Made by a program: the position numbers and the translations under genes. DNA of 57,437 bases, taken from assembly GCA_022614695.1 (NCBI GenBank), contig JAKEIC010000077.1, forward strand, positions 1-57,437, given 5' to 3'. Below, one piece after another: positions 7,851-52,391 of the stretch. Each line of letters begins with the position of its first letter. Position 1 is the stretch's first letter. This DNA is from Planctomycetales bacterium. Lineage in GTDB: Bacteria > Planctomycetota > JAKEIC01. The notes under the pieces were generated by a model. It was not told the origin of the DNA. It worked only from the letters and a program-made list of their open reading frames with translations, and made no database searches.

Positions 7851-7875
7851 CCCCTGTGACCGTGCCGGCGAGAAT
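7847..7875 (+). promoter_or_regulatory. Candidate sigma70-type promoter for the IPT/TIG giant gene
   Basis: TTGACC (7847-7852), a 17-nt spacer, then GAGAAT (7870-7875), 32 nt upstream of ATG 7907. The -35 overlaps the K1 stop codon. Motif match only. Confidence 0.35.
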
Positions 7876-7906
7876 CCAGGTCCCGCTCCCGCCGAGGGGG
7901 TTCCGG

Positions 7907-16926: not shown

Positions 16927-16972
16927 AGCCCGACGCGGCGAGGGGCGAGAGGCCCGGCGGGGCCGAGACCCA

Positions 16973-22755: not shown

Positions 22756-24672
22756 GTGGACCCCGGGCAGCGGACCGTGGGCTGCTTCCTCGCCGATTTC
22801 GGCCTCGCCCGGTACGTCGCGACCGGCTCGAAGTACACGCGGACGGGCCAGGCGCTCGGGACTCCCGAGTACATGTCCCCCGAGCAGGCGGTCGGCGACC
22901 CGGACGCGCTCTCGCCGGCCACCGACGTGTGGGGGCTCGGGGCCGCTCTCCACGAGATGCTCGCCGGAAGTCCGCCGTTCGAGGGAGACACGCCCACCTT
23001 GATCGCGAAGATCCTCCTCGAGTCGCCGCCGCGCATCCGTCGCCTCCGGCCCGACGCGCCCCGCGCCGTGGACCGGATCCTGCGGGTCTGCCTCGGGAAG
23101 GACCCCGCGCGCCGGTACGCGAACGGCCGGTCGCTCGCCGAGGACCTCGAGCGAGTCCTGCGCGGCGAGTCCCCTCTCGCGCGCCCTCCCTCGACAAGCA
23201 CGCTCATGACGGTCGCGGCCGTCGCCGCGGTCGCTGCCGTGGCCGCGCTCCTGCTCGTCGGCCGGTCGCCCACGGGGTCGGGGGGATCGGGGGCCGAGGA
23301 CCTGCCCGATCCGGGGGTTGCGCGGGCCGCGCTGTCCGGGGCGGCGTCGCCCGAGGGCCTGGCGGTCCGGGCGCGGGCGCTCCGGGCCTCCGACCCGCAG
23401 GCGGCCGTCCACCTGCTCGGGGAGGCGCTGGCGAGGGAACCCCTGCGGCACGCGTGGCGGCTCGAGCGCGGACTCCTCCTCTGGTGCCTCGGCGACGGGG
23501 AGGCGGCGCGGGAGGAGTGGCGCCGCGTCCCTCCCGACACCCCCGAAGGAACCGAAGCAAGGCTCTACGGCGGGCTCGTGGGCGTGATCAGCGGACACGA
23601 GGTGCGGATCCGGTCCGACCCGGAGACCGTGGACCGGGCGATCCGCGACCTCGAGGCCGTGGCCTCCGGTACGGGTCCCGAGGCCGCCCTCGCGCGGGGA
23701 GCCCTCGCGACGGCGCGACGGGATTGGGGGGAGGCGCGCCAGGCCCTTCGGGACGCCCCCGGATGGCTGGCGGCGATGCTCCGGGCGTTCGTCGAGGGAA
23801 CGGACCCCGCGGGCGACGATCGCCTGGCGGCCCGGGAGTACGGGGTCGCGCTCGCGGAGGGCGTCCCGTTCGGCTGGGCGTACGTGAACCGGGCGTGCTG
23901 CCTCGAGACGACGGGAGACTACGCCGCCATGCGAGCCGAGGCCGAAGCGGCCGTCCGCCTGCTGCCGGACGTCCCCGAGGCGCACAACGTCCTCGGCCAT
24001 TGCATGCTCCGCCTCGGCGATCTCCGCGGGGCGATGGAGGCGCTCGACGAGGCGCTGCGGCTCCGGCCGGGATTCGCCAACGCCCTCTTCGCCCGCGCCG
24101 GGGTGTGGATCGCCCGGGGGGACACCGCCCAGGCGCTCGCGGACATGGATGAGGCGGTCGTTGCCGACCCCGCCGATCCCGCCGCCTGGTGTCGCCGGGG
24201 GTTCCTGCGGTCGCGCCTCGGGGACCCCGCCGGCGCCGAGGCGGACCAGGACGAGGCGTTGCGGCTCCGTCCGGCCTTCCCCGAGGCGTTGGTGAACCGC
24301 GGAGCCCTGCGCAGCGCGCGCGCGGACCACGGCGGCGCGCTCGCCGACCTCGACGAGTCGCTGCGGATCGAGCCCGACCACCCCGAGGCGCTCCTCAACC
24401 GTGGGATCGCGCGACGCGCGGCCGGGCAGGTCGAGGGCTCTCTCGACGACTTCGCCCGACTCGCCGGCCTGCGCCCGGTGGACCCCGAGGCCCACCTCGG
24501 CCTGGCGCTCGGACGCGAGCTCCGGGAAGAGTGGCGCGGGGCGGCCACGGCCTACGCCGAGGTGCTGCGCCTCGCGCCCGGACACCCGCAGGCCGAGCGG
24601 GTGAGGCGCTCCCTCGCCGAGTGCGAGGAGCGCGCGCGGACGGCGGCGGGGAGCGAGGGGCGCGGCCGTTGA
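22756..24672 (+). CDS. K2: N-lobe-less paralogue (kinase subdomains VII-XI only) - TM - juxtamembrane module - TPR array
   Basis: It starts VDPGQRTVGCFLADFGLARYVATGSKYTRTGQALGTPEYMSPEQA. No Gly-loop, VAxK Lys or HRD loop exists upstream; the gene is preceded by only 45 nt and then the amidohydrolase stop. It has a TM helix LMTVAAVAAVAAVAALLLVG, the conserved WRLERGLLLW...GWLAAMLRAFVEGTDPAGD...PFGWAY module, and TPRs up to the stop. Confidence 0.75.
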   Translation: MDPGQRTVGCFLADFGLARYVATGSKYTRTGQALGTPEYMSPEQAVGDPDALSPATDVWGLGAALHEMLAGSPPFEGDTPTLIAKILLESPPRIRRLRPDAPRAVDRILRVCLGKDPARRYANGRSLAEDLERVLRGESPLARPPSTSTLMTVAAVAAVAAVAALLLVGRSPTGSGGSGAEDLPDPGVARAALSGAASPEGLAVRARALRASDPQAAVHLLGEALAREPLRHAWRLERGLLLWCLGDGEAAREEWRRVPPDTPEGTEARLYGGLVGVISGHEVRIRSDPETVDRAIRDLEAVASGTGPEAALARGALATARRDWGEARQALRDAPGWLAAMLRAFVEGTDPAGDDRLAAREYGVALAEGVPFGWAYVNRACCLETTGDYAAMRAEAEAAVRLLPDVPEAHNVLGHCMLRLGDLRGAMEALDEALRLRPGFANALFARAGVWIARGDTAQALADMDEAVVADPADPAAWCRRGFLRSRLGDPAGAEADQDEALRLRPAFPEALVNRGALRSARADHGGALADLDESLRIEPDHPEALLNRGIARRAAGQVEGSLDDFARLAGLRPVDPEAHLGLALGRELREEWRGAATAYAEVLRLAPGHPQAERVRRSLAECEERARTAAGSEGRGR

Positions 24673-26654
24673 CCCCGCCCCCGAGCCGGGACGGCCCCTC
24701 CGGGGACCCGGGGCGCGGGGCGCCTCGCGCGTTCCTCGCCGACTTCGGCCTGGCGAAGTCCGTCTCCACCGGATCGAAGCTCACCCGCACCGGCCAGGCT
24801 CTCGGGACCCCGGAGTACATGTCGCCCGAGCAGGCCCGCGGCGAGATGGCGGAATTGACGCCGGCCGCGGACACCTGGGCCGTCGGGGCCCTGCTCTACG
24901 AGGCCGTCACGGGGCGGGTCCCCTTCGAGGGCCCGACGCCGGCCCAGGTGGTCCTGAAGGTCCTCCGCCACGAGCCGCCCCCGCTGCGCCGGCTCGCGCC
25001 GGGGGTCCCCGAGGCCCTCGAGGCGGTCGTCCGGGGTTGCCTCGGGAAGCGCGCCACCGACCGCTACCGGGACGGAGCGACCCTGCGCGACGACCTGGAC
25101 CGGCTCCTCGGTGGGGCGCGGCCGCTCTCGCGCGCCCGGAGACGGCAGAGGCCCGTGCTCCTCGCGGCGTGCGGGGCCGGTGCGGTCGCCCTCGTCGCGG
25201 CGCTCGTGCCGTCCGGGACCCCGACCGAGCCCGAACCGGTCGTCGGGCCCGCGCCGGCCGCCGCCCTGGCGGCGCGCGCCCGCGCCGTGGAGACCGGGGA
25301 CCCCGCGGCGGCGGCGAGGCTCCTCGACGAAGCCCTCGCCGCCGAACCCGGCCACCCGTCCCGCCACGAGTGGCGGCTCCGGCGGGGGCTCCTCCTCTGG
25401 GCCCTCGGGCGGGGGGCGGAGGCCCGCGAGGCGTGGGACCGGGTCCCCGACGACGCGGGCGAGGCCCCGCGGGCCCGGCTCTACTCGGCGCTCGAGCCGA
25501 TGTTCCGCCTGGCAGGGGAGGAGGCAGGGCCGGCGCTCGAGCGGGTCGCCCGCGGGACGGGCCCGGAAGCGGGCCTCGCGCGGGGGGCGCTCGCGACGGT
25601 CCGCCGGGACTGGGGCGCGGCCCGGGCCGCCCTGGGCGGTTTGCCCGGCTGGGAGGCGGCGCTCCTTCGCGCGTCGGTGGAGTGCCTCGACGCGGCGGGC
25701 GGAGATCCGGCGCTCGCGGTCCGCGATTCGGACGCGGCGCTCGCGACGGGCATCCGGTTCGGATGGGCGTTGAGCAACCGGAGCGCCGCCCGCCGGGAGC
25801 TGGGAGACTTCCGCGGCGCCCTGCTCGACGCGGAGGAGGCACTGCGGCTCTCCCCCGGGTTCCTCCTGGCGCTCCTCGGCCGCGCCGAGGCCCGACTTGC
25901 GCTGGGCGACGGGCGGGGGGCGCTCGCCGACTGCGAGGAGGTCCTGCGGCGCGACCCCGGCTACGCCAAGGGGCTCACCGGGCGAGCGGACACCCATCGG
26001 GCCCTGGGCGACCACGCCCGCGCGATTGCCGACTACGACGCGGCGCTGCGGCTCCAGCCCGGCGATCCGGTCGCGCTCACGAACCGGGGGGTCAGCCGCG
26101 AGCGGCTCGGGGACCTCGAAGGCGCGATCGCCGACCACGAGGCGGCGCTCCGCGCCCGGCCGAGCATGTTCGAGGCGCTCCTGAACCGGGGCAACGCCCG
26201 GTTCCTCCTCCGCGACGGCGAGCGCGCCCTCGAGGACTTCGGCGCCGCGATCCGGGCCCGGCCGCGCCGCGTCGAGCCGTACTTCAACCGCGGGAACGTC
26301 CGCACGTTCCTCGGAGACCACGCCGGGGCCGCGGAGGACTACACGGCCGCGATCGAGAGGGACCCGGGGATGGTCGCCGCCTACCTCTCCCGCGGCAACG
26401 CCCGCGTCCGGCTCGGCGACCACCGGGGGGCGTCGGAGGACTTCGCCGCGACGATCCGCCTCGACCCCTCGGACGCGGCCGTCCACGGGAACCTCGGATC
26501 GAGCCTCTACGAGCTGGGGGACCTCGCCGGCGCCGCGGCCCACTACGAGGAGTTCCTCCGGCGCTTGCCCGATCACCGCTCCGCCCGCCACCTCCGTGGG
26601 AGGCTCGAGGAGATCCGCCGGAGGCTGGCGGGCGGGGAGCCGGGCGGCCGTTAG
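24669..26654 (+). CDS. K3: N-lobe-less paralogue - TM - juxtamembrane module - TPR array
   Basis: TTG 24669 overlaps the K2 stop TGA 24670-24672. It begins LTPPPSRDGPSGDPGRGAPRAFLADFGLAKSVSTGSKLTRTGQALGTPEYMSPEQARGE. The TM helix is PVLLAACGAGAVALVAALV, followed by about seven TPRs. The track ORF start at 24189 is an out-of-frame overlap with K2. Confidence 0.7.
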   Translation: MTPPPSRDGPSGDPGRGAPRAFLADFGLAKSVSTGSKLTRTGQALGTPEYMSPEQARGEMAELTPAADTWAVGALLYEAVTGRVPFEGPTPAQVVLKVLRHEPPPLRRLAPGVPEALEAVVRGCLGKRATDRYRDGATLRDDLDRLLGGARPLSRARRRQRPVLLAACGAGAVALVAALVPSGTPTEPEPVVGPAPAAALAARARAVETGDPAAAARLLDEALAAEPGHPSRHEWRLRRGLLLWALGRGAEAREAWDRVPDDAGEAPRARLYSALEPMFRLAGEEAGPALERVARGTGPEAGLARGALATVRRDWGAARAALGGLPGWEAALLRASVECLDAAGGDPALAVRDSDAALATGIRFGWALSNRSAARRELGDFRGALLDAEEALRLSPGFLLALLGRAEARLALGDGRGALADCEEVLRRDPGYAKGLTGRADTHRALGDHARAIADYDAALRLQPGDPVALTNRGVSRERLGDLEGAIADHEAALRARPSMFEALLNRGNARFLLRDGERALEDFGAAIRARPRRVEPYFNRGNVRTFLGDHAGAAEDYTAAIERDPGMVAAYLSRGNARVRLGDHRGASEDFAATIRLDPSDAAVHGNLGSSLYELGDLAGAAAHYEEFLRRLPDHRSARHLRGRLEEIRRRLAGGEPGGR

Positions 26655-26665
26655 GATTCCCTCCC

Positions 26666-28996
26666 GTGGAGGGAGACCCCGCGACCCGGATCGGTCCCTA
26701 CGAGATCGGGGAGGAGCTCGGCCGGGGCGGGTTCGGCTCGGTCTACCGGGCGCGGGACGCCTCGACCGGCCGGGAGGTCGCGCTCAAGGTCTTGCGCGAG
26801 GATCCGGGGGACGGCGCACTCCCGGCCCGCCGGTTCCTGCGCGAGACGTCGCTCGTGCGCGAGCTCGATCACCCGGCGATCCTGAAGGTCCTCGACGCGT
26901 CCCGGGAGGACGAGAAGCCCCTCTGGGTGGCGTTCGAGCTCGTGGAGGGCGTTCCCCTCTGGAAGCTCCTGGCCGAGGAGCCCCTCGAGTGGCGCCGGGC
27001 GGCCGAGATCGCCCGCGACGTCGCCGCCGCCCTCGGACACGCCCACGCCAAGGGGATCCTGCACAGGGACGTGAAGCCGGGCAACATCCTCGTCGGCCGC
27101 AAGTGGGGTGACGAGGATGTTGCGGACGGGGCCCCCGGGAACGCGCGAAGCGCGTTCCTCACCGACTTCGGCCTCGCCCGCGTCACTGACACGCGGTCGC
27201 GCCTCACGGTGACGGGGATGGCGATCGGGACGCCGGAGTACATGTCGCCCGAGCAGGCGCGCGGAGAGACGACGTCTCTCAGCCCGGCGACCGACGTCTG
27301 GGCGGTCGGCGTGGTCCTCTACGAGATGCTCGCGGGGCGACTGCCGTTCGAGGGGGACTCCCCCGAGTCGGTGATCGAGAAGGTCGTCCTGCGGGAGCCG
27401 GTGGGCCTCCGGAAGCTCCGGTCCGGCGTGCCGGCGGGGCTCGACCGCGTCGTGCGCGCCTGTCTCGCGAAGCGGCGGGAGTCGCGCTACCCGGACGGGA
27501 CGGCTCTCCAGGAGGACTTGGACCGGGTGCTCCGGGGTGAGAACGCACGCGCCTCGCCGCCCCACCGATGGCGAGGCCCCGCGATCGCGGCGGGGATGGC
27601 GGCGCTCCTCGCCGGCGCGGTCGCCCTGCGTCCCGGCTCCCCGCGCTCGGCGTCGGCGCCCGCCGAGGCCCGGTCCGCCCCGTCCGCCGCGGAGGCCCTG
27701 GCGGGGAGGGCGGCCCGGCTCAGGGGCTCCGACCCCGTCGAAGCCGCCCGGCTCCTCCAGCAGGCGTTGGCGGAGGATCTCGGTCACCCCGACGCCGACC
27801 GCTGGCGGCTGGAACGCGGCCTCCTCCTCTGGTCGGTCGGGTACGGGGACGAGGCGCAAGGGGAGTGGCTGCGGATCGCCCCCGGCTCGCCGCTCGCGCC
27901 GCCCGCGCGGCTCTACCGCGGTCTCGAGGCGATCCTGCGGATCCGCTCGAGCGCGGAGCGGCGCCAGGCGGGGACCGCCGAGCTGGAGGCCGCGGCTTCC
28001 GGCGAGGGCCGCGAGGGGAGACTCGCGCGCGGGACGCTGGCCGCGTTCGGCCACCGTTGGGACGAGGCGCGGCGTGCCCTGCGCGACGAGACCGGATGGG
28101 AGGCCGCCCTGCTCCGAGGCTACGTCGAGGGACTCGATCCGGCCGGCGACCGCGCGGCCGTCGTTCGGGAGCTCGGGGAGGCCCTCGCGGCCGGGCTCCC
28201 CTTCTCGTGGGCCCACAACAACCGGGGCGCCGCGCTCCTCGAGCTCGGGGACGCGCCGGGCGCGCTCGCGGAATTCGACGCGGCCCTCCGGCTCCGGCCC
28301 GACGATCCCGGGGCGCTCCTCAACCGGGGCATCGCGCGCCTCGGGGCCGGAGATCCGCGCGGGGCCCGCGACGACCTGACGACTCTGCTGCGGGACTCGC
28401 CGGGCGACTCCGCCGCCTCCCACCAGCGAGGCATCGCCCGGATGAGGCTCGGCGACACGGTCGGGGCCCTCGCGGACTTCACCGCGTCGCTCGAGGGCCG
28501 GCCGCGGGACCCGGACACGCGGTACAACCGGGGGAACGCCCACGTGGCCCTGGGGGACCTGGCGGCGGCCGAGAGGGACTACACGATCGCGATCGAGGCG
28601 CGACCTGACTTCCACGGGGCGCTCACGAACCGCGGGAACGTCCGCTGGAACCAGGGGAACGAGTCGGGAGCCCTCGAGGACTACGACGCCGCGCTCCGGA
28701 TCGCGCCGGGTGAGTCACGGGCGCTCAACAACCGGGGGAGGCTGCACCTCCGGCACGGCCGTCTCGAGGCCGCCGACGCGGACTTGCGAGCCGCTCGCAA
28801 GTCGGACCCGTCGTTCCCCGATCCGCTCTACAACCTCGGGATCGTCCACCAGAAGCGGCGAGAGTGGGAGGAGGCCATCCAGCTCTTCTCGGAGTTCCTT
28901 CGCATGGCTCCGACCCATGCCGCCGCCGAGGAGGCCCGCCTCCGGCGGACCGGCTGCGAGCAGGGCGCGCAGGAGGAATCCGGGCGCCCGCGCTGA
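26666..28996 (+). CDS. K4: full-length receptor Ser/Thr kinase - TM - juxtamembrane module - TPR array
   Basis: GTG 26666 lies 11 nt after the K3 stop. The sequence reads VEGDPATRIGPYEIGEELGRGGFGSVYRARD, VALKVL, HRDVKPGNILVGRKWGDEDVADGAPGNARSAFLTDFGLAR, GTPEYMSPEQ. The TM helix is GPAIAAGMAALLAGAVAL, followed by TPRs. The track ORF start at 25037 overlaps K3 out of frame. Confidence 0.85.
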   Translation: MEGDPATRIGPYEIGEELGRGGFGSVYRARDASTGREVALKVLREDPGDGALPARRFLRETSLVRELDHPAILKVLDASREDEKPLWVAFELVEGVPLWKLLAEEPLEWRRAAEIARDVAAALGHAHAKGILHRDVKPGNILVGRKWGDEDVADGAPGNARSAFLTDFGLARVTDTRSRLTVTGMAIGTPEYMSPEQARGETTSLSPATDVWAVGVVLYEMLAGRLPFEGDSPESVIEKVVLREPVGLRKLRSGVPAGLDRVVRACLAKRRESRYPDGTALQEDLDRVLRGENARASPPHRWRGPAIAAGMAALLAGAVALRPGSPRSASAPAEARSAPSAAEALAGRAARLRGSDPVEAARLLQQALAEDLGHPDADRWRLERGLLLWSVGYGDEAQGEWLRIAPGSPLAPPARLYRGLEAILRIRSSAERRQAGTAELEAAASGEGREGRLARGTLAAFGHRWDEARRALRDETGWEAALLRGYVEGLDPAGDRAAVVRELGEALAAGLPFSWAHNNRGAALLELGDAPGALAEFDAALRLRPDDPGALLNRGIARLGAGDPRGARDDLTTLLRDSPGDSAASHQRGIARMRLGDTVGALADFTASLEGRPRDPDTRYNRGNAHVALGDLAAAERDYTIAIEARPDFHGALTNRGNVRWNQGNESGALEDYDAALRIAPGESRALNNRGRLHLRHGRLEAADADLRAARKSDPSFPDPLYNLGIVHQKRREWEEAIQLFSEFLRMAPTHAAAEEARLRRTGCEQGAQEESGRPR
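27080..27159. repeat. Double-hairpin module in K4 (copy 2 of 3)
   Basis: Hairpin 1 is GCAACATCCTCGTC (27081-27094) paired with GACGAGGATGTTGC (27110-27123), a 14-bp stem. Hairpin 2 is GGAACGCGC-GAA-GCGCGTTCC (27138-27158). I count 6 differences from the 80-nt K6 copy. Confidence 0.9.
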
Positions 28997-29006
28997 GGGG
29001 TATCTC

Positions 29007-30863
29007 GTGAACTGCTCCCTCACCGACTTCGGCCTCGCGAAGTTCGCGGCGACCGGCTCCCGGCTCACGCGCACCGGCCAGGCGCTCGGGACCCCCGCCT
29101 ACATGTCGCCCGAGCAGGCGCGCGGCGAGCTCCTCGCCCTCTCGCCCGCGACGGACGTCTGGTCGCTCGGGTGCGTCCTCTACGAGATGCTCGCGGGCCG
29201 CCCCCCCTTTGAGGGAGGGACGCCGGCCGAGACCGTCGGGAAGGTCCTCTTCTCGGAACCCCCGGCGCTCCGGCGACTCCGCCCGGACGTCCCCGCGAGC
29301 CTGGAGCGGATCGTGCGGGTGGCGCTCGCGAAGGGCGTCCGGGCGCGGTATCCCGATGCCGCGGCGTTCCGCGACGACCTCGATCGCGTGACGCGAGGCG
29401 AGAGCCCGCGAGCGCGGCCGCCCGGCCCGCGACGCCTTGGGACCACACTCGCGCTGGGGGCCGCCGCCGCCGCCGGGGCTATCGGCCTCTCGTGGCACTT
29501 CCGCCCGCCGGAGGCGCCTCCGCCGCCCGCCGCCCCGCCGGCGAGGTCCCGGGCGGAGGCGCTCGCGGACCGTGCCCGCGGGCTCCGGACCTCCGACCCT
29601 CGGGAGGCGGCCCGCCTTCTCGGGGAAGCGCTCCGGGAGGACCCCGGCCGCGCGGGGTGGCGGCTCGAGCGGGGGCTCCTCCTCTGGGCGCTCGGCGAGA
29701 GCCGCGTGGCTCGCGAGGAGTGGGGCCGGGTGTGCGAAGTCCCCGGCGGCTGCCCGGAGTCCGAGAGGGCCCATCTCTACCGCGCGCTCGAGGTGGTCTT
29801 CGACATGGACCTCGGGGCGCGGAGGATCGAGGAGGCGCTGCCCGACATCGAGGCGGTCCTCGCCGCCGACGGATCGTGCGCGGGGCTCGCGAGGGGGGCC
29901 ATCGCGGCCGTCTGGGGGCACGGGCCGGAGGCGCTCGAGGAGCTCCGGGAGCAGCGAGGCTGGGAGGCGGCGCTGCTGCGGGGCTACGTCGAGGGGGACG
30001 CCGAACGTCATCCCGGAGGCGACCCGGCCCGCGCGGTGCGGGAGTTCACCGAGGCGCTCGCGGCCGGCCTTCCCTTCGCGTGGGCCTACCTCGACCGAGG
30101 CGTCTCGCGCCACCGGCTGGGCGACTTCCCGGGCGCGATCCGGGACTGCGACGCGGCCCTGCGGGTGCGCCCGGCGTGGCACGTGGCCCTGGCCAACCGG
30201 GGCGCGGCGCGCCTCTCCCTCGGGGACACCCCGCGGGCCCTCGAGGACGTGGAGGCCGCGCTGCGACTCCGGCCGGACTACCCGGATGGCCTCCTCGGCC
30301 GCGCGAGCGTCCGCGCGGCGCTGGGGGACCTCCCCGGCGCGCTGGAGGACGCGGAGGCCTCCCTGCGTCTCCAGCCCCAGTCCGCCCTGGGCCTGACGCA
30401 CCGGGGCGAGCTCCGCGGGCGGCTCGGCGACGCGCGGGGCGCCCGCGAGGACCTGGACTCCGCCCTCCGGCTCCGCCCCGAGATGCCCGAGGCGCTCGCC
30501 TTCCGGGGCAAGCTGCGGGGGGAGCTCGGCGACTTCTCCGGGGCCCTCGACGATCTCGACGCCGCGATCCGGCTCCGGCCCGGGGTGCCGAACTTCCACG
30601 TGGTCCGGGCGGCCGCGCGCGAGTCGCTGGGCCGGCTGGAGGAGGCGGTGCTCGACTGCGACGCGGCCGTCCGGCTCAAGCCCGACTACGTCGAGGCGCT
30701 CGCGCAGCGCGCGCGGGCGCGGATCAGCCTCGGAAACCCGGAGGGGGCCCTCGCCGACTGCGGGGAGGCCCTGCGGCTCCGTCCGGGATACGCGCCGGCC
30801 CTTGAGTTCGAGGCGAGGGCCCGGGCCGAGCTGGCGGAACGGGGCCCCCGAGGCGGGCGGTAG
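29007..30863 (+). CDS. K5: N-lobe-less paralogue - TM - juxtamembrane module - TPR array
   Basis: GTG 29007 lies 10 nt after the K4 stop. It begins VNCSLTDFGLAKFAATGSRLTRTGQALGTPAYMSPEQARGE. The TM helix is LGTTLALGAAAAAGAIGLSW, followed by about six TPRs. Confidence 0.7.
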   Translation: MNCSLTDFGLAKFAATGSRLTRTGQALGTPAYMSPEQARGELLALSPATDVWSLGCVLYEMLAGRPPFEGGTPAETVGKVLFSEPPALRRLRPDVPASLERIVRVALAKGVRARYPDAAAFRDDLDRVTRGESPRARPPGPRRLGTTLALGAAAAAGAIGLSWHFRPPEAPPPPAAPPARSRAEALADRARGLRTSDPREAARLLGEALREDPGRAGWRLERGLLLWALGESRVAREEWGRVCEVPGGCPESERAHLYRALEVVFDMDLGARRIEEALPDIEAVLAADGSCAGLARGAIAAVWGHGPEALEELREQRGWEAALLRGYVEGDAERHPGGDPARAVREFTEALAAGLPFAWAYLDRGVSRHRLGDFPGAIRDCDAALRVRPAWHVALANRGAARLSLGDTPRALEDVEAALRLRPDYPDGLLGRASVRAALGDLPGALEDAEASLRLQPQSALGLTHRGELRGRLGDARGAREDLDSALRLRPEMPEALAFRGKLRGELGDFSGALDDLDAAIRLRPGVPNFHVVRAAARESLGRLEEAVLDCDAAVRLKPDYVEALAQRARARISLGNPEGALADCGEALRLRPGYAPALEFEARARAELAERGPRGGR

Positions 30864-42397: not shown

Positions 42398-44601
42398 GCG
42401 GTCCTCCGCGCCATCTCGGGCCCTGGGAGATCCTGGAGGAGATCGGCCGCGGGGGGTACGGGGCCGTCTACCGGGCTCGCCACTCGCGCACGGGAGCGCC
42501 GGCCGCCGTGAAGCTCGTCCTCGCGGGCGACGGGGCGACTCCGGAGGAGATCCGGCGGTTCCAGCGCGAGATCGCGCTGGCGCGCACCCTCGACCACCCG
42601 GGGATCGTGAAGGTGCTCGACGTGGGGGACGAGGGCACGCGCCTCTGGTACGCGATGGAGCTTGTCGAGGGCCGGCCGCTCTACAGGCTCCTCGCCGAGG
42701 AGACCCTCCCCTGGCGCCGCGCCGTCGAGATCGCCCGCGACGTCGCCGACGCCCTCGCCCACGCCCACGCGCGGGGGGTGCTTCACCGGGACGTGAAGCC
42801 TGGCAACATCCTCGTCGGCCGCAAGTGGGGCGACGAGGATGTTGCCAATGGGGCCCCTAGGAACGCGCGAAGCGCGTTCCTAGCCGACTTCGGCCTTGCC
42901 CGGCTCTCGTCGAGCGCGTCGCGCCTCACGCGGACCGGCATGGCGCTCGGGACGCCGGAGTACATGTCCCCCGAGCAGGCGCAGGGCGAGCGGGAGAAGC
43001 TCGGGCCCCCGACCGACGTGTGGGGCGTGGGCTGCGTCCTCTACGAGATGCTCGCGGGGAGGCTCCCGTTCGAGGGCACCTCGGCCGAGCACACGATCGA
43101 GGCCGTCGTGCTCCGCGAGCCGGTCCCGCTCCGCCGGGTCCGCCCCGACGCCCCGCCCGCGCTCGAGCGGGTCGTGCGCGTCTGCCTCGCCAAGCGCCCC
43201 TCGCGCCGCTACCGCGACGCGGGCGCGCTCCGCGACGACCTGGACCGCGTGCTCCGGGGCGAGCGTCCGCAGGCGCGGCCCCCGGCACGGTGGGGGTGGA
43301 GAGTCGCGGCCGCGGCCTTCGTGGCGGCAGTCGCGTGCTGGGCTGGCTGGCTCGCCCGGGAGTCGGGCGAGCCCGAGCTGGTTGCCGAAGGGCACGGGCC
43401 GCCTGGGGCCCCGTCGAGAGCGGAGTCGCTCGCGGGCCGGGCGCGAGCTCTCCGGGCCACGGATCCTCGGGAGGCGGCGCGGCTTCTCGGAGAGGCCCTC
43501 GCGCTCGAGAGAGACCAGCACGAGTGTAGGATCGAGAGAGGGCTCTTGCTCTGGGCTGCCGGAGATGGTCCCGGGGGCCGGGCCGAGTGGCAAGGCGTCC
43601 CGGCCACTGCCGCCGCGTGGTCGCGAGCGAACTTCTACATGGCGATCCAGGCCCTGGGCCATCCGGAGGGGTTCGATTTCGACGCCCAGCTCGAAGCGAT
43701 CCAGGACGGGTCGGGCCGAGAGTCCACGATCGCCCGGGCCATCCTCGAGCTCCTGCATCGAGAGTGGGCTTCTGCGCGTGCATTGCTGCGGGGACTTCCC
43801 GGCTGGGAGGCCGCGATGGCGCGAGGATACCTCGAGACCATGGATCCGACGGGAGATCCGGCGGCCGCCGTGCGAGAGTACGGCGTAGTCCTCGCGGAAG
43901 GCCTCCACATCCCGTGGGTCCATCAGATGCGCGCCGTGTGCCGCAACCGAACCGGAGACCCCCGGGGCGCGATCGAGGACGCGGACGAGACCCTGCGCGT
44001 CCAGCCAGCGTCCCCAGAGGCCCTTGAAGTCCGGGCAAATGCGAGAGGGAGACTCGGGGACCACGTCGGCGCTCTCGAGGACGCCGAGGCTGCGCTGAAG
44101 CTGCGCCCGCGGTTCCCGGGGGCGCTCCTCACCCGCGGGACCGTGAGAGGCCTGTCGGGCGACCTGGCTGGCGCACTCCGGGACTTTGACGCGGCTCTCG
44201 ATCTGGATCCGGGCTTTGAGCACGCCCTGTTCAATCGGGCCTATGCCCGGGAGCAGAGCGGCGACCTGCAGGGTAGCCTGAGGGACTACGACGCCCTCAT
44301 CCGGGTGCGGCCTGACCACGTGGATGCCAGGCACAACCGGGGCTCACTCCGGGCCCGACTGGGAGACGACGCGGGGGCGGAGGAGGATCTCGAAGTCGCC
44401 CACCGTGCGCGACCTGACGACCCGTTGCCTTTGGGGATGCTGGGGCGTGTCCGGCGGGCCCGGCGGGACTGGGCCGGTGCCGCGGATGCCTTCCGTGGTT
44501 TCCTCCGGCTCGCGGCGAGCGATTCGCAGCGAGCCCAGGTGACCGCATGGCTGGCAGAGTGCGAGGAGAAGCTCCGCGAGGAGCGCGCGAAGGGTCGGTA
44601 G
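42394..44601 (+). CDS. K6: full-length receptor Ser/Thr kinase - TM - juxtamembrane module - TPR array
   Basis: ATG 42394 overlaps the moeA stop (ATGA). The sequence reads MSGPPRHLGPWEILEEIGRGGYGAVYRARH, AVKLVL, HRDVKPGNILVGRKWGDEDVANGAPRNARSAFLADFGLAR, GTPEYMSPEQ. The TM helix is WRVAAAAFVAAVACWAGWLA, followed by TPRs. Confidence 0.85.
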   Translation: MSGPPRHLGPWEILEEIGRGGYGAVYRARHSRTGAPAAVKLVLAGDGATPEEIRRFQREIALARTLDHPGIVKVLDVGDEGTRLWYAMELVEGRPLYRLLAEETLPWRRAVEIARDVADALAHAHARGVLHRDVKPGNILVGRKWGDEDVANGAPRNARSAFLADFGLARLSSSASRLTRTGMALGTPEYMSPEQAQGEREKLGPPTDVWGVGCVLYEMLAGRLPFEGTSAEHTIEAVVLREPVPLRRVRPDAPPALERVVRVCLAKRPSRRYRDAGALRDDLDRVLRGERPQARPPARWGWRVAAAAFVAAVACWAGWLARESGEPELVAEGHGPPGAPSRAESLAGRARALRATDPREAARLLGEALALERDQHECRIERGLLLWAAGDGPGGRAEWQGVPATAAAWSRANFYMAIQALGHPEGFDFDAQLEAIQDGSGRESTIARAILELLHREWASARALLRGLPGWEAAMARGYLETMDPTGDPAAAVREYGVVLAEGLHIPWVHQMRAVCRNRTGDPRGAIEDADETLRVQPASPEALEVRANARGRLGDHVGALEDAEAALKLRPRFPGALLTRGTVRGLSGDLAGALRDFDAALDLDPGFEHALFNRAYAREQSGDLQGSLRDYDALIRVRPDHVDARHNRGSLRARLGDDAGAEEDLEVAHRARPDDPLPLGMLGRVRRARRDWAGAADAFRGFLRLAASDSQRAQVTAWLAECEEKLREERAKGR
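42802..42881. repeat. Double-hairpin module in K6 (copy 3 of 3, both stems perfect)
   Basis: Hairpin 1 is GGCAACATCCTCGTC (42802-42816), the loop GGCCGCAAGTGGGGC, then GACGAGGATGTTGCC (42832-42846), giving 15/15 bp. Hairpin 2 is AGGAACGCGC-GAA-GCGCGTTCCT (42859-42881), giving 10/10 bp with the core GCGAAGC. Confidence 0.95.
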
Positions 44602-44613
44602 GAGCTCGATACC

Positions 44614-46938
44614 ATGGGGGCCGGGATGACCGAATCGAGCCCGTTGCCGGTGTCCGATGGGCCCGCGTCCACGCGTTTCGGCCCCTGGGAGATCCTCGAG
44701 GAGATCGGCCGCGGGGGGTACGGGGCGGTCTACCGGGCTCGCCACTCGCGGACCGGCGCGGTCGCCGCGGTCAAGGTGATCCTCGCGGGCGAGGGCGCGA
44801 CTCCCGACGAGATCCGGAGGTTCCAGCGCGAGATCGCGCTCGCGCGCACGCTCGACCACCCGGGGATCGTCCGGGTCCTGGACGTCGGGGAGGAAGGGGC
44901 GCGGGCCTGGTTCGCGATGGAATACGTCGAGGGTCGCTCCCTGTGGGCCACGCTCACGGAGGAGTCGCTCCCGTGGCGTCGGGCCGTCGAGATCGCCCGG
45001 GACGTGGCCGACGCGCTCGGCCACGCGCACGCCCGGGGCATCCTCCACCGGGACCTGAAGTCGGCGAACATCCTGATCGGGAGGAAGGTCGTCGCGGCCC
45101 CGTCCAGAGTCCAGAGTTCAGAGTCCAGAGTTGGGAGCGAAGAGCCGAACTCCGAACCCCGGACGCTGAACTCTGAACGTCCTTTCCTCACCGACTTCGG
45201 CCTCGCCCGTCTCGCGAGCACCGGATCGCGGCTGACGCGGACGGGCTTCGCCATCGGGACGCCGGACTACATGTCGCCCGAGCAGGCGCGGGGCGAGCGG
45301 GACCGGCTGGGACCGGCGACCGATGTGTGGAGCCTCGGGTGCATCCTCTACGAGATGCTCGCCGGACGCCTGCCCTTCGAGGGCTCCTCCTCGGAGCTGC
45401 TCGTCGAGGCGGTCGTCGCGAAGGACCCGACGCCGATCGGCCGCCTCCGCGAGGATCTGCCCGCGGGGCTCGATCGTGTGATCCGCGTCTGCCTCGCGAA
45501 GGACGCCTCCGACCGCTACCGCGATGGCTGGGCGCTGCGGGACGACCTCGACCGGGTGCTGCGCGGCGAGCGGCCGCTCGCCCGGCCGCCGCGGGGACCG
45601 GCGCTCGTGCGGGCCCTCGTGCTCTCCGGGTTGGTCATGGCCGCCGCCCTCTGGGGCGGCTGGCCGGCGCGCGAGGGGCCCGGTCCGGTCCCGCCGCCGG
45701 CTCCCGATGCCCCGCGGTCCCCCCCGGCGACCGGTGCGCCTCCCCGGGCCGAGGGGCTCGCCGCTCGGGCCATGGCGGTCCGGCATTCGGACCCGACCGA
45801 GGCGGCGCGACTCCTCGAGGCGGCGATCGCCTCTTCCCCGGACCACGCGAGGGGCCTCGCCTGGCGCCTCGAGCGGGGTCTCGTCCTCTGGGCCGTGGGG
45901 CGCGCGTCGGAAGCCCTCGAGGAGTGGAGGGGAATCCCGGCGGGCGCTCCGGAGGCGAAGCTCGCCCGATTCTACGAAGGGCTCGAGGCCTTCTTCGCCC
46001 TGCGAACGGCCGATTCGCTCCGCGTCCTCAGCGCCTCCGCCTCCCTCGGTGGTCGGGCCGGCAACCTCGCCGATGCGGCCGTCTTCGCGGTGGCCCGTGA
46101 CTGGCGCGCCGCCCGCGAGGTCCTGCGGGGCGAGCCCGGCTGGGAGGCCGCTCTCCTCCGGGGCTACGTGGAGCACCACGACCCCTCCGGCGATCGGGAG
46201 GCGGCAATCCGCGAGTACGGTGTCGCGCTCGCCGACGGGATCCCCTTCGGCTGGGCCTACGGCAACCGGGCCAACCTGAGACAGGAGGCCGGAGACTTGG
46301 CGGGGGCCCGGGCCGACTATGACGAGGCCCTGAGGCTCGACCCCGGGCTGGTGCTCGCCTGGAACAACCGGGCCGCCTTCCGGTTCGCACTGGGGGATCG
46401 CGAGGGGGCCCGGGCGGACGTCGAGCAGGCCCTGCGGCTCGACCCGAGCTACGGGCACGCCTGGCACAACCGCGGGCTCATGCGGGGGGAGAGCGGAGAC
46501 CTGCGGGGCGCTCTCGAGGACGCGAGCGAGGCCGTCCGGCTGGAACCCCTCTACGCGGCGGCCTGGAACAACCGCAGCCTCGCGCGCCTCAGGTTGGGGG
46601 ACGTGGACGGGGCGATCGCCGACGCGGACGAGGCCCTCCGGCTCGATCCGAGCGAGGCCAAGACCTGGATCAATCGCGGGAACGCGCGGGGGACCCGAGG
46701 GGATGTGGAGGGGGCGATCGCCGATCTCGACGAGGGGCTCCGGCGGAACCCGCGGCTCCTCGACGGCTACATGCTCCGGGCATTCGCCCGACGCTTGGGG
46801 GGCGACCTCGAAGGGGCCGCGGCGGACCTCGCGCGGGCGCTCGAGCTCGCGCCCCCCGACTGGCCCCGCCGGGCGGAGGCCGAGAGGCTCCTGAAGGGGG
46901 TCGAGGCCGCCGTCCGGGGGAGCCAGAAGGGCCGGTGA
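44614..46938 (+). CDS. K7: full-length receptor Ser/Thr kinase - TM - juxtamembrane module - TPR array, with a different insert before DFG
   Basis: ATG 44614 has AGGAG 9 nt upstream. The sequence reads FGPWEILEEIGRGGYGAVYRARH, AVKVIL, HRDLKSANILIGRKVVAAPSRVQSSESRVGSEEPNSEPRTLNSERPFLTDFGLAR, GTPDYMSPEQ. The TM helix is LVRALVLSGLVMAAALWGG, followed by TPRs. Confidence 0.85.
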   Translation: MGAGMTESSPLPVSDGPASTRFGPWEILEEIGRGGYGAVYRARHSRTGAVAAVKVILAGEGATPDEIRRFQREIALARTLDHPGIVRVLDVGEEGARAWFAMEYVEGRSLWATLTEESLPWRRAVEIARDVADALGHAHARGILHRDLKSANILIGRKVVAAPSRVQSSESRVGSEEPNSEPRTLNSERPFLTDFGLARLASTGSRLTRTGFAIGTPDYMSPEQARGERDRLGPATDVWSLGCILYEMLAGRLPFEGSSSELLVEAVVAKDPTPIGRLREDLPAGLDRVIRVCLAKDASDRYRDGWALRDDLDRVLRGERPLARPPRGPALVRALVLSGLVMAAALWGGWPAREGPGPVPPPAPDAPRSPPATGAPPRAEGLAARAMAVRHSDPTEAARLLEAAIASSPDHARGLAWRLERGLVLWAVGRASEALEEWRGIPAGAPEAKLARFYEGLEAFFALRTADSLRVLSASASLGGRAGNLADAAVFAVARDWRAAREVLRGEPGWEAALLRGYVEHHDPSGDREAAIREYGVALADGIPFGWAYGNRANLRQEAGDLAGARADYDEALRLDPGLVLAWNNRAAFRFALGDREGARADVEQALRLDPSYGHAWHNRGLMRGESGDLRGALEDASEAVRLEPLYAAAWNNRSLARLRLGDVDGAIADADEALRLDPSEAKTWINRGNARGTRGDVEGAIADLDEGLRRNPRLLDGYMLRAFARRLGGDLEGAAADLARALELAPPDWPRRAEAERLLKGVEAAVRGSQKGR
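45103..45179. repeat. Heptad-phased imperfect palindrome inside K7, at the same codon position as the K1/K4/K6 double hairpin
   Basis: The heptads read tccagag|tccagag|ttcagag|tccagag|ttgggag|cgaagag|ccgaact|ccgaacc|ccggacg|ctgaact|ctgaacg. Pairing positions i+j=90280 over 45103-45135 versus 45145-45177 gives 24 Watson-Crick pairs of 33. The centre is CGAAG (45138-45142). Confidence 0.85.
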
Positions 46939-51200: not shown

Positions 51201-52343
51201 CTACGGTATGACCTGAATGACCTCGACCGGTTGGCTGATCCCCTTCGCCTTGATGCGTCCCACGACCTCGAACTTCATCTCCTTCTTGATGTCCTGGCTC
51301 CGGCCGAGGATCGCGTCGAAGGTGTGCTGGCTGATGAGGATCTGGCCGGGTTCGGCGGCCTCGCAGAGGCGGTGGGCGAGGTTCACGTGGTGGCCGAGGA
51401 CGGTGTATTGCATGCGCTTGTCCGTGCCGATGGTGCCGACCATCATCTCGCCGGTGTTGATGCCGATCCCGAGTTGCGGCGCGGGCTTCCCTTCCGCCGC
51501 CCACTTCTCCGTGAGCTTCTTGTGGCCGCGCTGCATCTCGATCGCGACGCGCAGCGAGTCGAGCGCGTGGTTCTCGTTCGGGATCGGCGCCCCGAAGATC
51601 GCCATCACCTCGTCGCCGACCACCTTGTCGAGAGTCGCCTCGTGCTTCTCGATCATTTCAATCATGAGCCCCAGGTACTCGTTGATGATGTCCCGCACGG
51701 CCTCCGGAGGCATCTTCTCCGAGGTCGAGGTGAAGCCGCGGAGGTCCCCGAACAGCACGGTCATCGCCTTTCGCTCGGCCTTGAAATAGTCGCGCTTGAG
51801 CTCCTTCATCTTCGCGATCACGGCGGGCGCGACGAAGCGCTGGAAGGTCTGCTCGAGGTCGCGGAGGTCGGTCAGGTCCTCGATCAGGATCTGCGGCTTC
51901 CCGTTCTCGACGTTCACCTTCACCCGGTAGGTGAGGTCCTTCCCCTGGGCCGGGTCGGGCCACGTCCGCTCGCGGGAGACCGGCCGCCCGTTCCCGCGCG
52001 CCTCGGAGACCAGCTCGCGGAGGAGCCCCGGTCCCCAGGGGAACTGGTCCACCGCGGAGAGGTGCTGGCCGACCAGGTTCTCGCGCGGGACGCCGAGGGC
52101 CTTGGCGAGCGCCGAGTTCAAGTACTCGATCCGATCCTGCTCGTTGAGTTGGATGACCTTCTCCTCGAGGCCGGCGATGCTGCGGAGCGCGCCCTGCTGC
52201 CCGGTGCCCTCCTTCTTGAGGACCCGGACCTGACGCCGGAGCTCGGCGAGCTCGTCGAGGAGCTCTCGTTTGCTGGTGAGCCGGTCGAGGAGGCCCATGA
52301 GGGAACGGGCGCCCGCGGCCCGAAGAGTCGAGCGCTTGGGCAC
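51201..52343 (-). CDS. PAS-domain class III adenylate/guanylate cyclase
   Basis: It has an N-terminal coiled coil and a PAS-like IEYLNSALAKALGVPRENLVGQHLSAVD. The cyclase domain reads MTVLFGDLRGFTSTSE...LDKVVGDEVMAIFGAP...GIGINTGEMMVGTIG...YTVLGHHVNLAHRLCE. Confidence 0.85.
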   Translation of the reverse strand: MPKRSTLRAAGARSLMGLLDRLTSKRELLDELAELRRQVRVLKKEGTGQQGALRSIAGLEEKVIQLNEQDRIEYLNSALAKALGVPRENLVGQHLSAVDQFPWGPGLLRELVSEARGNGRPVSRERTWPDPAQGKDLTYRVKVNVENGKPQILIEDLTDLRDLEQTFQRFVAPAVIAKMKELKRDYFKAERKAMTVLFGDLRGFTSTSEKMPPEAVRDIINEYLGLMIEMIEKHEATLDKVVGDEVMAIFGAPIPNENHALDSLRVAIEMQRGHKKLTEKWAAEGKPAPQLGIGINTGEMMVGTIGTDKRMQYTVLGHHVNLAHRLCEAAEPGQILISQHTFDAILGRSQDIKKEMKFEVVGRIKAKGISQPVEVIQVIP

Positions 52344-52391
52344 CCCGAGGATCGGGCAGGTTACCGGAGCCTGGGGAAGGGGTCAACGCGC

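Follow-up and report, generated by a model that had tools for sequence, protein, structure and literature searches.

How does a palindrome built from seven-nucleotide repeats come to be translated in the middle of a protein kinase? The gene in question, K7, lies on contig JAKEIC010000077.1 of a Planctomycetales bacterium (assembly GCA_022614695.1). The whole 57.4-kb contig (74% GC), referred to here as the window, was analyzed, and its proteins match Planctomycetales metagenome-assembled genomes (MAGs). From the letters alone, the original prediction had singled out an element at 45103-45179 whose halves fold back on each other and had likened it to the Rickettsia palindromic elements (RPEs). 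We observed that the K7 heptad palindrome is real and statistically strong, and that it occupies a loop whose contents behave as a cassette among related kinases. Our favored explanation, to which we give about an even chance, is that the element is a translated quasi-palindrome of heptanucleotide repeats, produced by slippage and template switching, within a loop cassette swapped by gene conversion. We do not think that it has a dedicated biochemical function.

The gene and the segment that sets it apart are located as follows.

44614-46938, + strand: K7, whose product has a Ser/Thr protein kinase domain, followed by a hydrophobic segment and by TPR repeats; 774 amino acids (aa) from the ATG.
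45088-45183, + strand: in-frame insert of 32 codons, translated as VVAAPSRVQSSESRVGSEEPNSEPRTLNSERP, with low GC at third codon positions (GC3) and rare codons.
45076-45192, + strand: loop cassette, bounded on the left by the conserved N-I-L codons AACATCCTG and on the right by GACTTCGGC, the codons of D-F-G; the part that differs from the orthologue.

An identical database protein, P0001, is assigned the Pfam Pkinase and TPR families and is called there at 762 aa. The insert follows the catalytic loop HRDLKSAN-ILIGRK and precedes FLTDFG, and the placement of a translated element between G-R-K and F-L-T-D-F-G, first made from the letters, therefore holds. In the AlphaFold model of K7 (mean predicted local distance difference test score, pLDDT, 84.9), residues 150-174 of the insert (762-aa numbering) have pLDDT <50 and are without secondary structure, and they are flanked by a strand at 141-147 (ILIGRKV) and another at 177-180 (RPFL). 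The insert is thus modelled as an extended beta7-beta8 hairpin with a floppy tip, between the HRDxKxxN catalytic loop and DFG, and the predicted loop product, which includes the peptide SRVQSSESRVGSEEPNSEPR, as disordered and rich in S, E, R, P and N. The hydrophobic segment that follows the kinase domain suggests that the domain itself is cytoplasmic.

Codon use in the insert is unlike that elsewhere in K7. Its GC3, 0.656, is the lowest of any 32-codon window of the gene, the remaining 742 codons having 0.919, and GC content is 62.5% against 75%. The codons AGT, TCA and GTT occur in the insert and are absent from the rest of K7. The GC3 drop and the confinement of these codons back the earlier claim that the heptads are a feature of the nucleotide sequence, not of the peptide.

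The closest protein to K7 is P0002 (74% identity), its syntenic orthologue in locus L001, which has a plain 12-residue turn, HRDVKSANILVDRVGRAHVADFG, and no insert; the gene order MoeA - kinase - kinase - PMT_2 is common to both regions. The blastn collinearity of the two loci breaks exactly at the element, where window positions 45074 to 45193 face L001 10482-10514 and the window is longer by a net 87 nt. The replaced segment runs over ~45076-45192, from just after AACATCCTG to just before GACTTCGGC. An extra translated segment is thus present, as had been proposed, while the 77-nt span first given to it is not a codon multiple and gives way to 87 nt, or 29 codons, relative to the orthologue. 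In a second assembly, from the same or a near-identical organism, the insert is identical; 773 of 774 residues match, and the one change lies elsewhere.

The element itself consists of two heptad arrays facing each other across a short center, enclosed by an outer stem.

45102-45131, + strand: left arm, GTCCAGA, GTCCAGA, GTTCAGA, GTCCAGA, GT; Tandem Repeats Finder (TRF) period 7, 4.3 copies, 91% matches, score 53, unit GTCCAGA; direct-repeat family D2.
45136-45144, + strand: symmetry center, AGCGAAGAG, with a C(GAA)G turn, coding for part of G-S-E-E; spacer of inverted repeat I1.
45145-45178, + strand: right arm, CCGAACT, CCGAACC, CCGGACG, CTGAACT, CTGAAC; TRF period 7, 4.9 copies, 77% matches, unit CCGAACT; inverted repeats I1, I2 and I4.
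45079-45088, + strand: outer stem, 5' side, GGGAGGAAGG, the G-R-K codons with the rare AGG for Arg; pairs with 45181-45189.
45181-45189, + strand: outer stem, 3' side, CCTTTCCTC, coding for P-F-L, of which F-L is native to strand beta-8.

The TRF arrays and the inverted-repeat arms bear out the description of the element as 7-nt units inverted between its halves, and the C(GAA)G turn lies at its center as originally read. In the first register, the arms 45101-45135 and 45145-45179 (35 nt each, 9-nt spacer) are 74% complementary, and a base-by-base count gives 26 Watson-Crick pairs of 35, close to the 24 of 33 obtained earlier by hand. In a second register, shifted by one heptad, 45109-45137 and 45150-45178 (29 nt) are 83% complementary. 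The outer stem is seen in the fold of a 141-nt RNA (-57.9 kcal/mol, z = -2.6), and the sequence TTCCTCACC is identical among the insert-bearing paralogues and different in the insert-less orthologue.

Comparison with shuffled controls, the check that the original prediction had proposed, shows that shuffled sequences seldom or never fold back as well. Over 91 nt, the sense DNA folds at -17.8 kcal/mol (z = -2.9) and the sense RNA at -36.3 kcal/mol (z = -3.3, no G.U pairs); in each case, 2 of 200 dinucleotide shuffles were as good. The antisense RNA (45095-45185, minus strand) reaches -49.4 kcal/mol (z = -5.0) with seven G.U pairs, a value matched by 0 of 200 shuffles. Furthermore, with 30-nt arms the K7 element is the top gapless fold-back among all positions of the window (24 of 30 pairs), a score attained in none of 20 whole-window shuffles. 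TRF reports seven period-7 rows in the entire window, and four of them are the K7 element and a similar element in the paralogue K1.

Is the K7 palindrome a lone kind, different from those of its paralogues, as it first appeared? At least four states of the loop are found in close relatives: no insert (12 aa) and three types of insert.

Type A insert: 26-27 aa, two hairpins, GRKWGDEDVA.GAPRNARSAFLTDFG; K1, K4, K6 and several MAG proteins (K6 42805-42894; K4 27083-27172; K1 5865-5954; L001 7984-8076; L002 1167-1256; L208 1118-1210; L209 3433-3525).
Type B insert: 41-42 aa, heptad palindrome of K7-like architecture; P0007, P0008, P0017 and P0020.
Type C insert: 26-77 aa; P0011, P0021 and P0023.

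In the type B DNA, a left array of (GTCGTTT)n or (GTTTGNC)n faces a right array of (AAACGAC)n or (CAAACNC)n across a center that codes for S-E-E, and in P0007 its stems reach 18 consecutive pairs. K7 and type B measure 41 and 42 residues, respectively, from Asn to DFG, and both begin with K-V-V and carry S-E-E at the center; these two motifs are the only peptide sequence conserved between them. The repeat unit is GTYCAGA/TCTGAAC in K7 and GTCGTTT/AAACGAC in type B. The K7 palindrome is thus not alone, since four relatives share its architecture, length and S-E-E center. A HMMER search with the 60-residue K7 loop against 1.84 billion representative proteins gave meaningful matches only to the type B proteins P0017 and P0008 (E ~3e-4); the two top-ranked matches, P0240 and P0241, are unrelated repeat proteins and were set aside as chance similarity. 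Judged from these alignments, the K7 insert would be a divergent member of the type B architecture, for which homology is likely but not proven. It may be related to type B in direct or in reverse-complement orientation, as forward and reverse alignments score alike. The pairing in type B comprises 34 consensus pairs with one both-side change, among just four similar sequences.

In the public data searched, the K7 version appears to be without a match beyond its own cluster. A protein search with the kinase domain only returned shorter, more distant kinases and no closer relative of K7, and a contig scan for generic kinase motifs (HRDVKPxNI, TPxYMSPE) gave, among the matches listed, only kinases of <=40% identity from other phyla. 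Other kinases of planctomycetes and the Planctomycetes-Verrucomicrobia-Chlamydiae (PVC) group carry inserts of 15-38 residues at the same beta7-beta8 turn, in ~8% of 120 matches (P0185, P0190, P0201, P0207, P0220, P0224). One of them, P0224, from another planctomycete lineage (L207 2207-2350), has a high-GC loop palindrome that is complementary at 26 of 28 positions, abuts the NIL codons and folds at -90 kcal/mol over 144 nt; the loop insert of L206 (58% GC) is not clearly palindromic. In the type B protein P0017 (L002 5583-5738), PRD replaces the catalytic HRD (LPRDVKPGN), and P0017 may be a pseudokinase, or PRD may be a sequencing variant.

Where, then, did the arms come from? The sister inserts are informative here. 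In type A, hairpin 1 is formed by AACATCCTCGTC, which is AAC ATC CTC GTC, the native N-I-L-V codons, pairing with GACGAGGATGTT (GAC GAG GAT GTT, D-E-D-V). The residues of these N-I-L-V codons are universal in kinases. Similarly, in hairpin 2, AGGAACGCGC pairs with GCGCGTTCCT, which holds the native A-F-L codons of beta8. In type C, AAGTCGCTGAGA and TCTCAGCGACTT form a 12-bp stem without a mismatch, and the native L-S-D-F codons make up its right arm. An imported sequence would not be complementary to its target, and the use of native kinase codons as a hairpin arm therefore argues for inverted duplication in situ and not for import. In K7, the outer stem alone uses flanking codons (G-R-K against P-F-L).

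Across the seven type A sequences, 96.8% of the cells in the paired columns are paired, against <=52% in controls slid by 1-3 columns. In three pairs both partners have changed; in P0041, for instance, GTC/GAC has replaced ATC/GAT, and one pair runs through the series G-C (K6), G.T (P0004) and A-T (P0027, P0003), at the price of replacing A by T and A by V in the peptide. Six of the seven sequences have a GAA or GGA loop in hairpin 2, with C-G as the closing pair, and in four (K6, K4, P0003, P0004) the sequence is GCGAAGC, an unusually stable DNA mini-hairpin. All of the inserts seen in the family (~14) are in frame and stop-free. Template switching can write perfect stems in one event, homogenize the arms of inverted repeats, produce multibase compensatory changes and rewrite codons, with no need of selection for structure (PMC8794818, PMC8604942).

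The reading frame constrains the heptads. The right-arm unit CTGAAC contains a TGA, which moves to another frame with each further heptad; in K7, two units keep it, and two of the three frames are blocked while the gene's own frame is open. A second in-frame heptad palindrome is present in K1, in the beta4-beta5 loop (5646-5700: GAATTC GGTTCAC GGTTCAC CGCTCAC A GTGAACT CGTGAAC CGTGAAC TG; 14-residue insert), where CGGTTCA x2 faces GTGAAC x3 and the unit shares the core GTTCA/TGAAC with that of K7. P0041, from another MAG, has related GTGAACN heptads at its beta4-beta5 loop (L002 897-1022). At this second site, the TGA-free frame is kept by an 8-nt unit in K1 and by a mutated third unit, GGGGAAC, in P0041. 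The pattern of TGA in K7, K1 and P0041, with one frame left open, is as purifying selection for read-through would produce. Stop-codon avoidance alone was rejected as the source of the imperfections of the K7 palindrome, since a perfect mirror of the left arm adds just one TGA.

Does the loop exchange its contents? In a neighbor-joining tree of the kinase domain without the loop, the insert types are scattered: K7 (B-like) pairs with P0002 (none), K4 (A) with P0023 (C), P0004 (A) with P0011 (C), and P0013 (A) with P0020 (B). K4 (type A) and P0023 (type C, 77 aa) are positional orthologues by synteny, and their alignment breaks at the loop only. Of the three orthologous pairs between the genomes of K7 and of L001, just one agrees in insert type. 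The original proposal of a hot spot, or of a loop in which such elements are tolerated, is thus supported by the several loop states, by types that do not follow the tree, by the differing orthologues and by the modelled disorder. The comparison of K7 orthologues, which had been named as a possible refutation, cuts both ways: symmetry is kept as a class property in types A and B, whereas for K7 itself conservation is unprovable, the sole orthologue being without the element.

Same-genome paralogues point to how the cassettes may move. Identity is higher in the insert than in the two flanks for K6-K1 (0.92 against 0.64 and 0.72), P0008-P0017 (0.93 against 0.79 and 0.75) and P0004-P0027 (0.83 against 0.62 and 0.71), whereas the order is reversed in the orthologues K6-P0003 (insert 0.78, flanks 0.88). 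In K6 and K1, a near-identical block (0.91-1.0 identity) surrounds the insert from ~-105 to +60 nt (~165-200 nt). In all paralogues, the cassette is bounded by near-invariant DNA, AACATCCT (N-I-L) and GACTTCGGC (D-F-G), and this almost invariant DNA of the catalytic loop and FLTDFG thereby offers homology for conversion. Such concerted evolution has the pattern expected of short-tract gene conversion centered on the cassette. By block identities, the flanks of K7 are closest to the orthologue up to N-I-L and again from the D of DFG on; a conversion tract reaching into the K7 flanks was rejected on these grounds.

Taken together, these observations suggest the following course of events. The beta7-beta8 turn is a permissive surface loop, and its contents act as an exchangeable cassette in the Planctomycetales kinase-TPR family. 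New loop sequence would arise in situ, when polymerase template switching (fold-back or hairpin-primed) writes inverted copies of neighboring sequence. Slippage would multiply the 7-nt units in one arm, and template switching would mirror them into the other. Repeated slippage and switching would re-homogenize the arms, and palindromes would thus persist and show paired changes without any function. Cassettes appear to be copied between paralogues of the same genome by short-tract gene conversion, with the conserved flanks as homology, and hairpin-induced breaks may stimulate this conversion. Selection would act mainly on the protein, favoring an open frame and a harmless loop, with which the inserts are consistent. 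K7 may have made its own version or may have received a type-B-like cassette whose repeat unit has since turned over.

Several observations weigh against this explanation. No switch or conversion event is directly seen for K7, whose close relatives are an identical assembly and an insert-less orthologue. The K7 arms, at 74-83% complementarity, fall below what active homogenization predicts, and their mismatches are skewed on the sense strand (six A.C/C.A against one G.T), which slippage and switching do not predict. Type A covariation at an amino-acid cost fits selection on nucleic-acid structure equally well. The DNA alignment of K7 to type B is weak, 2.5-3.3 standard deviations above shuffles in either orientation, and the search for dispersed copies covered just ~130 kb of clade DNA. 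Finally, the identity of paralogues near the catalytic loop may partly reflect extreme codon bias on conserved residues; such bias may inflate the upstream identity, but it cannot, on our comparison, explain identity inside the codon-poor insert.

A broader version of the same idea is that the loop, and to a lesser extent the beta4-beta5 loop, is a self-perpetuating palindrome cassette site. Hairpins extruded in the course of replication would cause breaks or polymerase switches that are repaired on the element itself, which makes and mirrors heptad arrays, or by homing-like short-tract conversion from a paralogue between the invariant N-I-L and D-F-G codons, and the process would create, swap and delete loop peptides; failed repair would leave paralogues without the N-lobe, and the RNA structure would perhaps also be put to use. 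We regard this as an unlikely, though not a negligible, account. Three tandem paralogues of the window bear on it: K2 (~22756-24672), K3 (24669-26654) and K5 (29008-30863) cover Pkinase profile positions 138-263 and TPR only, and their starts, 5-24 codons ahead of DFG, coincide with the cassette site. The TTG start of K3 overlaps the stop of K2 (TTGA), and K5 starts at a GTG after GAGGGG. K3 retains GAPRAFLADFG, a type A remnant in which the left arm of hairpin 2 is deleted. Dozens of database homologues are shortened in the same way, with 575-700 aa and no HRD motif. The shortened paralogues fit a break-prone site, but they fit one ancient truncation with later duplications just as well.

Could the hairpin, and not the peptide, be what is selected? 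The element would then be a structure in the K7 mRNA (for ribosome pausing, as an RNase site or as protein-binding heptads) or an antisense structured RNA, with the peptide as a passenger. We consider this improbable. The antisense RNA does fold better than the sense RNA, a preference shared by all four type B inserts (L002, L083, L084); the type A hairpins combine near-complete pairing with both-side changes, a G.U intermediate and an amino-acid cost; hairpin 2 of type A includes the stable GCGAAGC; and non-optimal codons persist amid 92% GC3. On the other hand, the syntenic orthologue lacks the element and orthologous pairs carry different types, and no structure is therefore conserved at the K7 locus. 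A scan for sigma-70-type consensus and for intrinsic terminators found no promoter- or terminator-like site on either strand near the element, and both candidates were dropped. In Rfam, the element matches no family; only sub-threshold chance matches were returned, including one to a hairpin-favoring miRNA-precursor model. Template switching is, moreover, able to mimic covariation (PMC8794818).

The strand preference can be traced to the mismatches: of the seven that are of transition type, six read A.C in the sense orientation and thus G.U on the antisense strand, and the antisense RNA consequently folds better. This skew stems from a few repeat-unit differences spread by array expansion, a small effective sample for which the one-sided binomial p is ~0.06 (6 of 7), and selection against an over-stable mRNA hairpin gives the same skew. 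The antisense fold preference could reflect a structured antisense RNA, selection against an over-stable mRNA hairpin or strand-biased mutation in a few amplified units. Translational bypass and intron- or intein-like removal were rejected, since every insert is in frame with both flanks and stop-free.

A further reading, that the K7 element is a small mobile palindromic repeat (RPE-like, like a repetitive extragenic palindrome (REP) or like a miniature inverted-repeat transposable element (MITE)) inserted in frame, is in our judgment very unlikely. K7 has the element and the orthologue lacks it, its GC content looks foreign, its palindromic architecture and in-frame translation recall the RPEs (PMC10969869), and a CGTCC direct repeat stands at both of its ends (45101, 45178). 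These repeats are 77 nt apart, however; they cannot be an in-frame target duplication, and excising the element precisely would disrupt the reading frame. Set beside that of the orthologue, the turn has been remodelled and not merely interrupted, and the sister inserts, as described above, use native codons as a hairpin arm.

Copies and enzymes were looked for as well. Apart from these two loops in the paralogous kinases, neither the window nor ~75 kb of sister-MAG DNA yielded a second copy. The units TCCAGAG, TTCAGAG and CTGAACT form no other cluster in the 57-kb window, whose AT-containing heptad arrays both lie inside kinase genes, and in the sister-MAG loci such arrays occur inside kinase loops only. 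The search for heptad arrays elsewhere, which had been proposed at the outset, thus returned no further copy outside the kinase loops in the ~130 kb of clade DNA. A REP-associated tyrosine transposase (RAYT) or IS200-IS605-type enzyme had also been suggested as something to look for. Pfam found no transposase, RAYT or integrase in the window open reading frames (ORFs) scanned (6.8-15.6 kb ORF left out), the L001 gene table lists none over the stretch syntenic with 35.5-49 kb, and the tables of related loci likewise hold no RAYT. With neither dispersed copies in this DNA, nor such an enzyme nearby, nor an in-frame target duplication, nothing seen here supports an RPE-like insertion of a dispersed selfish element.

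Heptads of the K7 type do occur elsewhere in nature. A metagenome scan for (TYCAGAG)x3 gave at least 120 stretches, 80 of which were examined as loci L085-L164. Among these 80, the (GTYCAGA)n loci have 35-68% GC, lie mostly outside long ORFs and often stand beside other heptad arrays, and in ~10 an inverted partner array forms a heptad-phased hairpin. Such GTYCAGA heptads, sometimes with the inverted partner, in many contigs (L098, L101, L118, L124, L143, L151, L157) could be taken as further copies of a mobile repeat. The matches share the repeat unit only, however, with no common center or ends, and the loci are full of other heptad arrays: over ~400 kb, 264 of ~585 TRF rows have period 7, and ~60 other units dominate. 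These loci are heptanucleotide-rich genomes and not copies of one element.

Might the arrays be a contingency locus, in which gain or loss of a 7-nt unit switches K7 off or remodels its loop peptide, giving phase or sequence variation of a sensor kinase? The unit is not a codon multiple and is present in 4-5 copies per arm, relatives differ in unit type and arm length, and heptanucleotide repeats reportedly drive the phase variation of Haemophilus HMW1A. Nevertheless, the second, independent assembly has an identical insert, the arrays are short and imperfect (91% and 77%) and thus poor slippage substrates, and the TGA of the right arm closes two of three frames, meaning that most unit changes would kill the gene. 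A kinase domain that is probably cytoplasmic is, furthermore, under no obvious pressure to vary. We therefore hold this reading to be highly improbable. That the element is an artefact of assembly or amplification, for example a chimeric read that folds back, is hardly credible: although the source is a MAG and some library artefacts create palindromes, the element lies mid-contig, in frame, stop-free and identical in a second assembly, three or more independent MAGs have its architecture in the corresponding loop, and its arms are imperfect, with a pattern of stop-carrying units that keeps the gene's frame open.

The surroundings of the kinases include large repeats and further signaling genes. 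A stop-free frame of ~2,900 codons (6785-15625, +) contains 8.5 tandem copies of a 258-nt unit at 12042-14224 (66% matches), and its product is probably a repetitive surface or adhesin-like protein; the adjoining ORF 2-3916 encodes an FG-GAP repeat protein with 153-nt repeats. The 57 kb are unusually dense in signaling functions, with two adenylate/guanylate cyclase-domain genes (15628-16998, -; 51204-52382, -) and at least eight kinase or half-kinase genes. The Pfam families in the window ORFs scanned are FG-GAP, cyclase, amidohydrolase, UbiA, enoyl-CoA hydratase, thiolase, L28, SIS, PMI, pseudouridine synthase, M16 peptidase and kinase/TPR.

What would it mean if the favored explanation is correct? 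In-frame palindromes in bacterial genes are textbook knowledge for Rickettsia only, where they are selfish repeats. The kinases would reach the same outcome by another route, and repeatedly at one codon position of a multi-copy sensor-kinase family. The family would then be a natural record of replication errors at hairpins building new protein loops, would show such errors imitating compensatory evolution or positive selection and perhaps breaking genes at a defined point, and would make a debated mutational mechanism directly testable in bacteria. It would also be a warning that covariation and conserved stems within coding regions need not mean functional RNA. Conversely, if the hairpins are functional, especially on the antisense strand, they would represent a new class of intragenic structured element. 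The family-wide phenomenon is more interesting than the single K7 element.

How does the element compare with systems already described? Programmed bypass, as in T4 gene 60 or mitochondrial byp, involves an untranslated gap between take-off and landing codons that match, in most cases with a stop following take-off and a stem-loop on the 5' side, whereas K7 needs no bypass. MITEs have terminal inverted repeats around a core, a flanking target-site duplication and related autonomous insertion sequences, whereas the whole K7 element is one fold-back, its CGTCC repeats are out of frame, and Pfam found no insertion sequence in the window ORFs scanned. With REPs, the element shares hairpin formation, and its left arm starts with CGTC, one of the two REP-superfamily tetranucleotide tags given in PMC3733652. 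REPs, however, are 20-40 bp long, extragenic, high-copy and accompanied by a RAYT gene, whereas the K7 element is intragenic, longer than 75 nt and found once in the window.

The heptads themselves have counterparts. According to PMC4679880, which cites Mrazek et al. 2007, heptanucleotides outnumber every other class of long simple-sequence repeats in most prokaryotes, possibly as a result of the way in which the polymerase slips. The cyanobacterial short tandemly repeated repetitive (STRR) sequences and the TAACTGA repeats of Beggiatoaceae resemble the K7 arrays in their tandem 7-nt units, with 2-6+ copies, mixed related units and occasional inverted pairs. In Beggiatoaceae, all but 25 of 170 sets are intergenic (PMC4679880), whereas the K7 arrays are intragenic, in frame, hairpin-paired and part of a 74% GC genome that is nearly without such arrays in the sequence examined.

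Like an RPE, the K7 element is a hairpin-forming palindrome that lies in frame within an ORF, where the protein fold can accommodate it. It is translated into additional residues, and one orthologue has it while the other lacks it. RPEs, however, are ~150 bp long and form sequence families dispersed in unrelated genes and intergenic sites, with a conserved peptide per family (PMC10969869). The K7 element measures 77-117 nt, consists of 7-nt repeats with no consensus beyond the unit, has so far been seen in two loops of one kinase family only and comes from a genome of different phylum and GC content; in the sequence examined, it has neither the dispersed family copies nor a family consensus of 100-150 bp that codes for a conserved peptide. 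The analogy holds for the outcome only and not for the mechanism.

The hairpins attributed to template switching resemble the kinase inserts in their inverted adjacent copies, near-perfect one-step stems, homogenized arms and multi-residue replacements (PMC8794818, PMC8604942). An arm that copies adjacent sequence is clear in types A and C; in K7, flanking codons take part in the outer stem only. The described cases are mostly of a few to ~20 nt, in rRNA genes, yeast genes and primate genomes, whereas the kinase family presents in-frame loop insertions of 50-230 nt that recur at one codon position, with tandem expansion and apparent exchange between paralogues.

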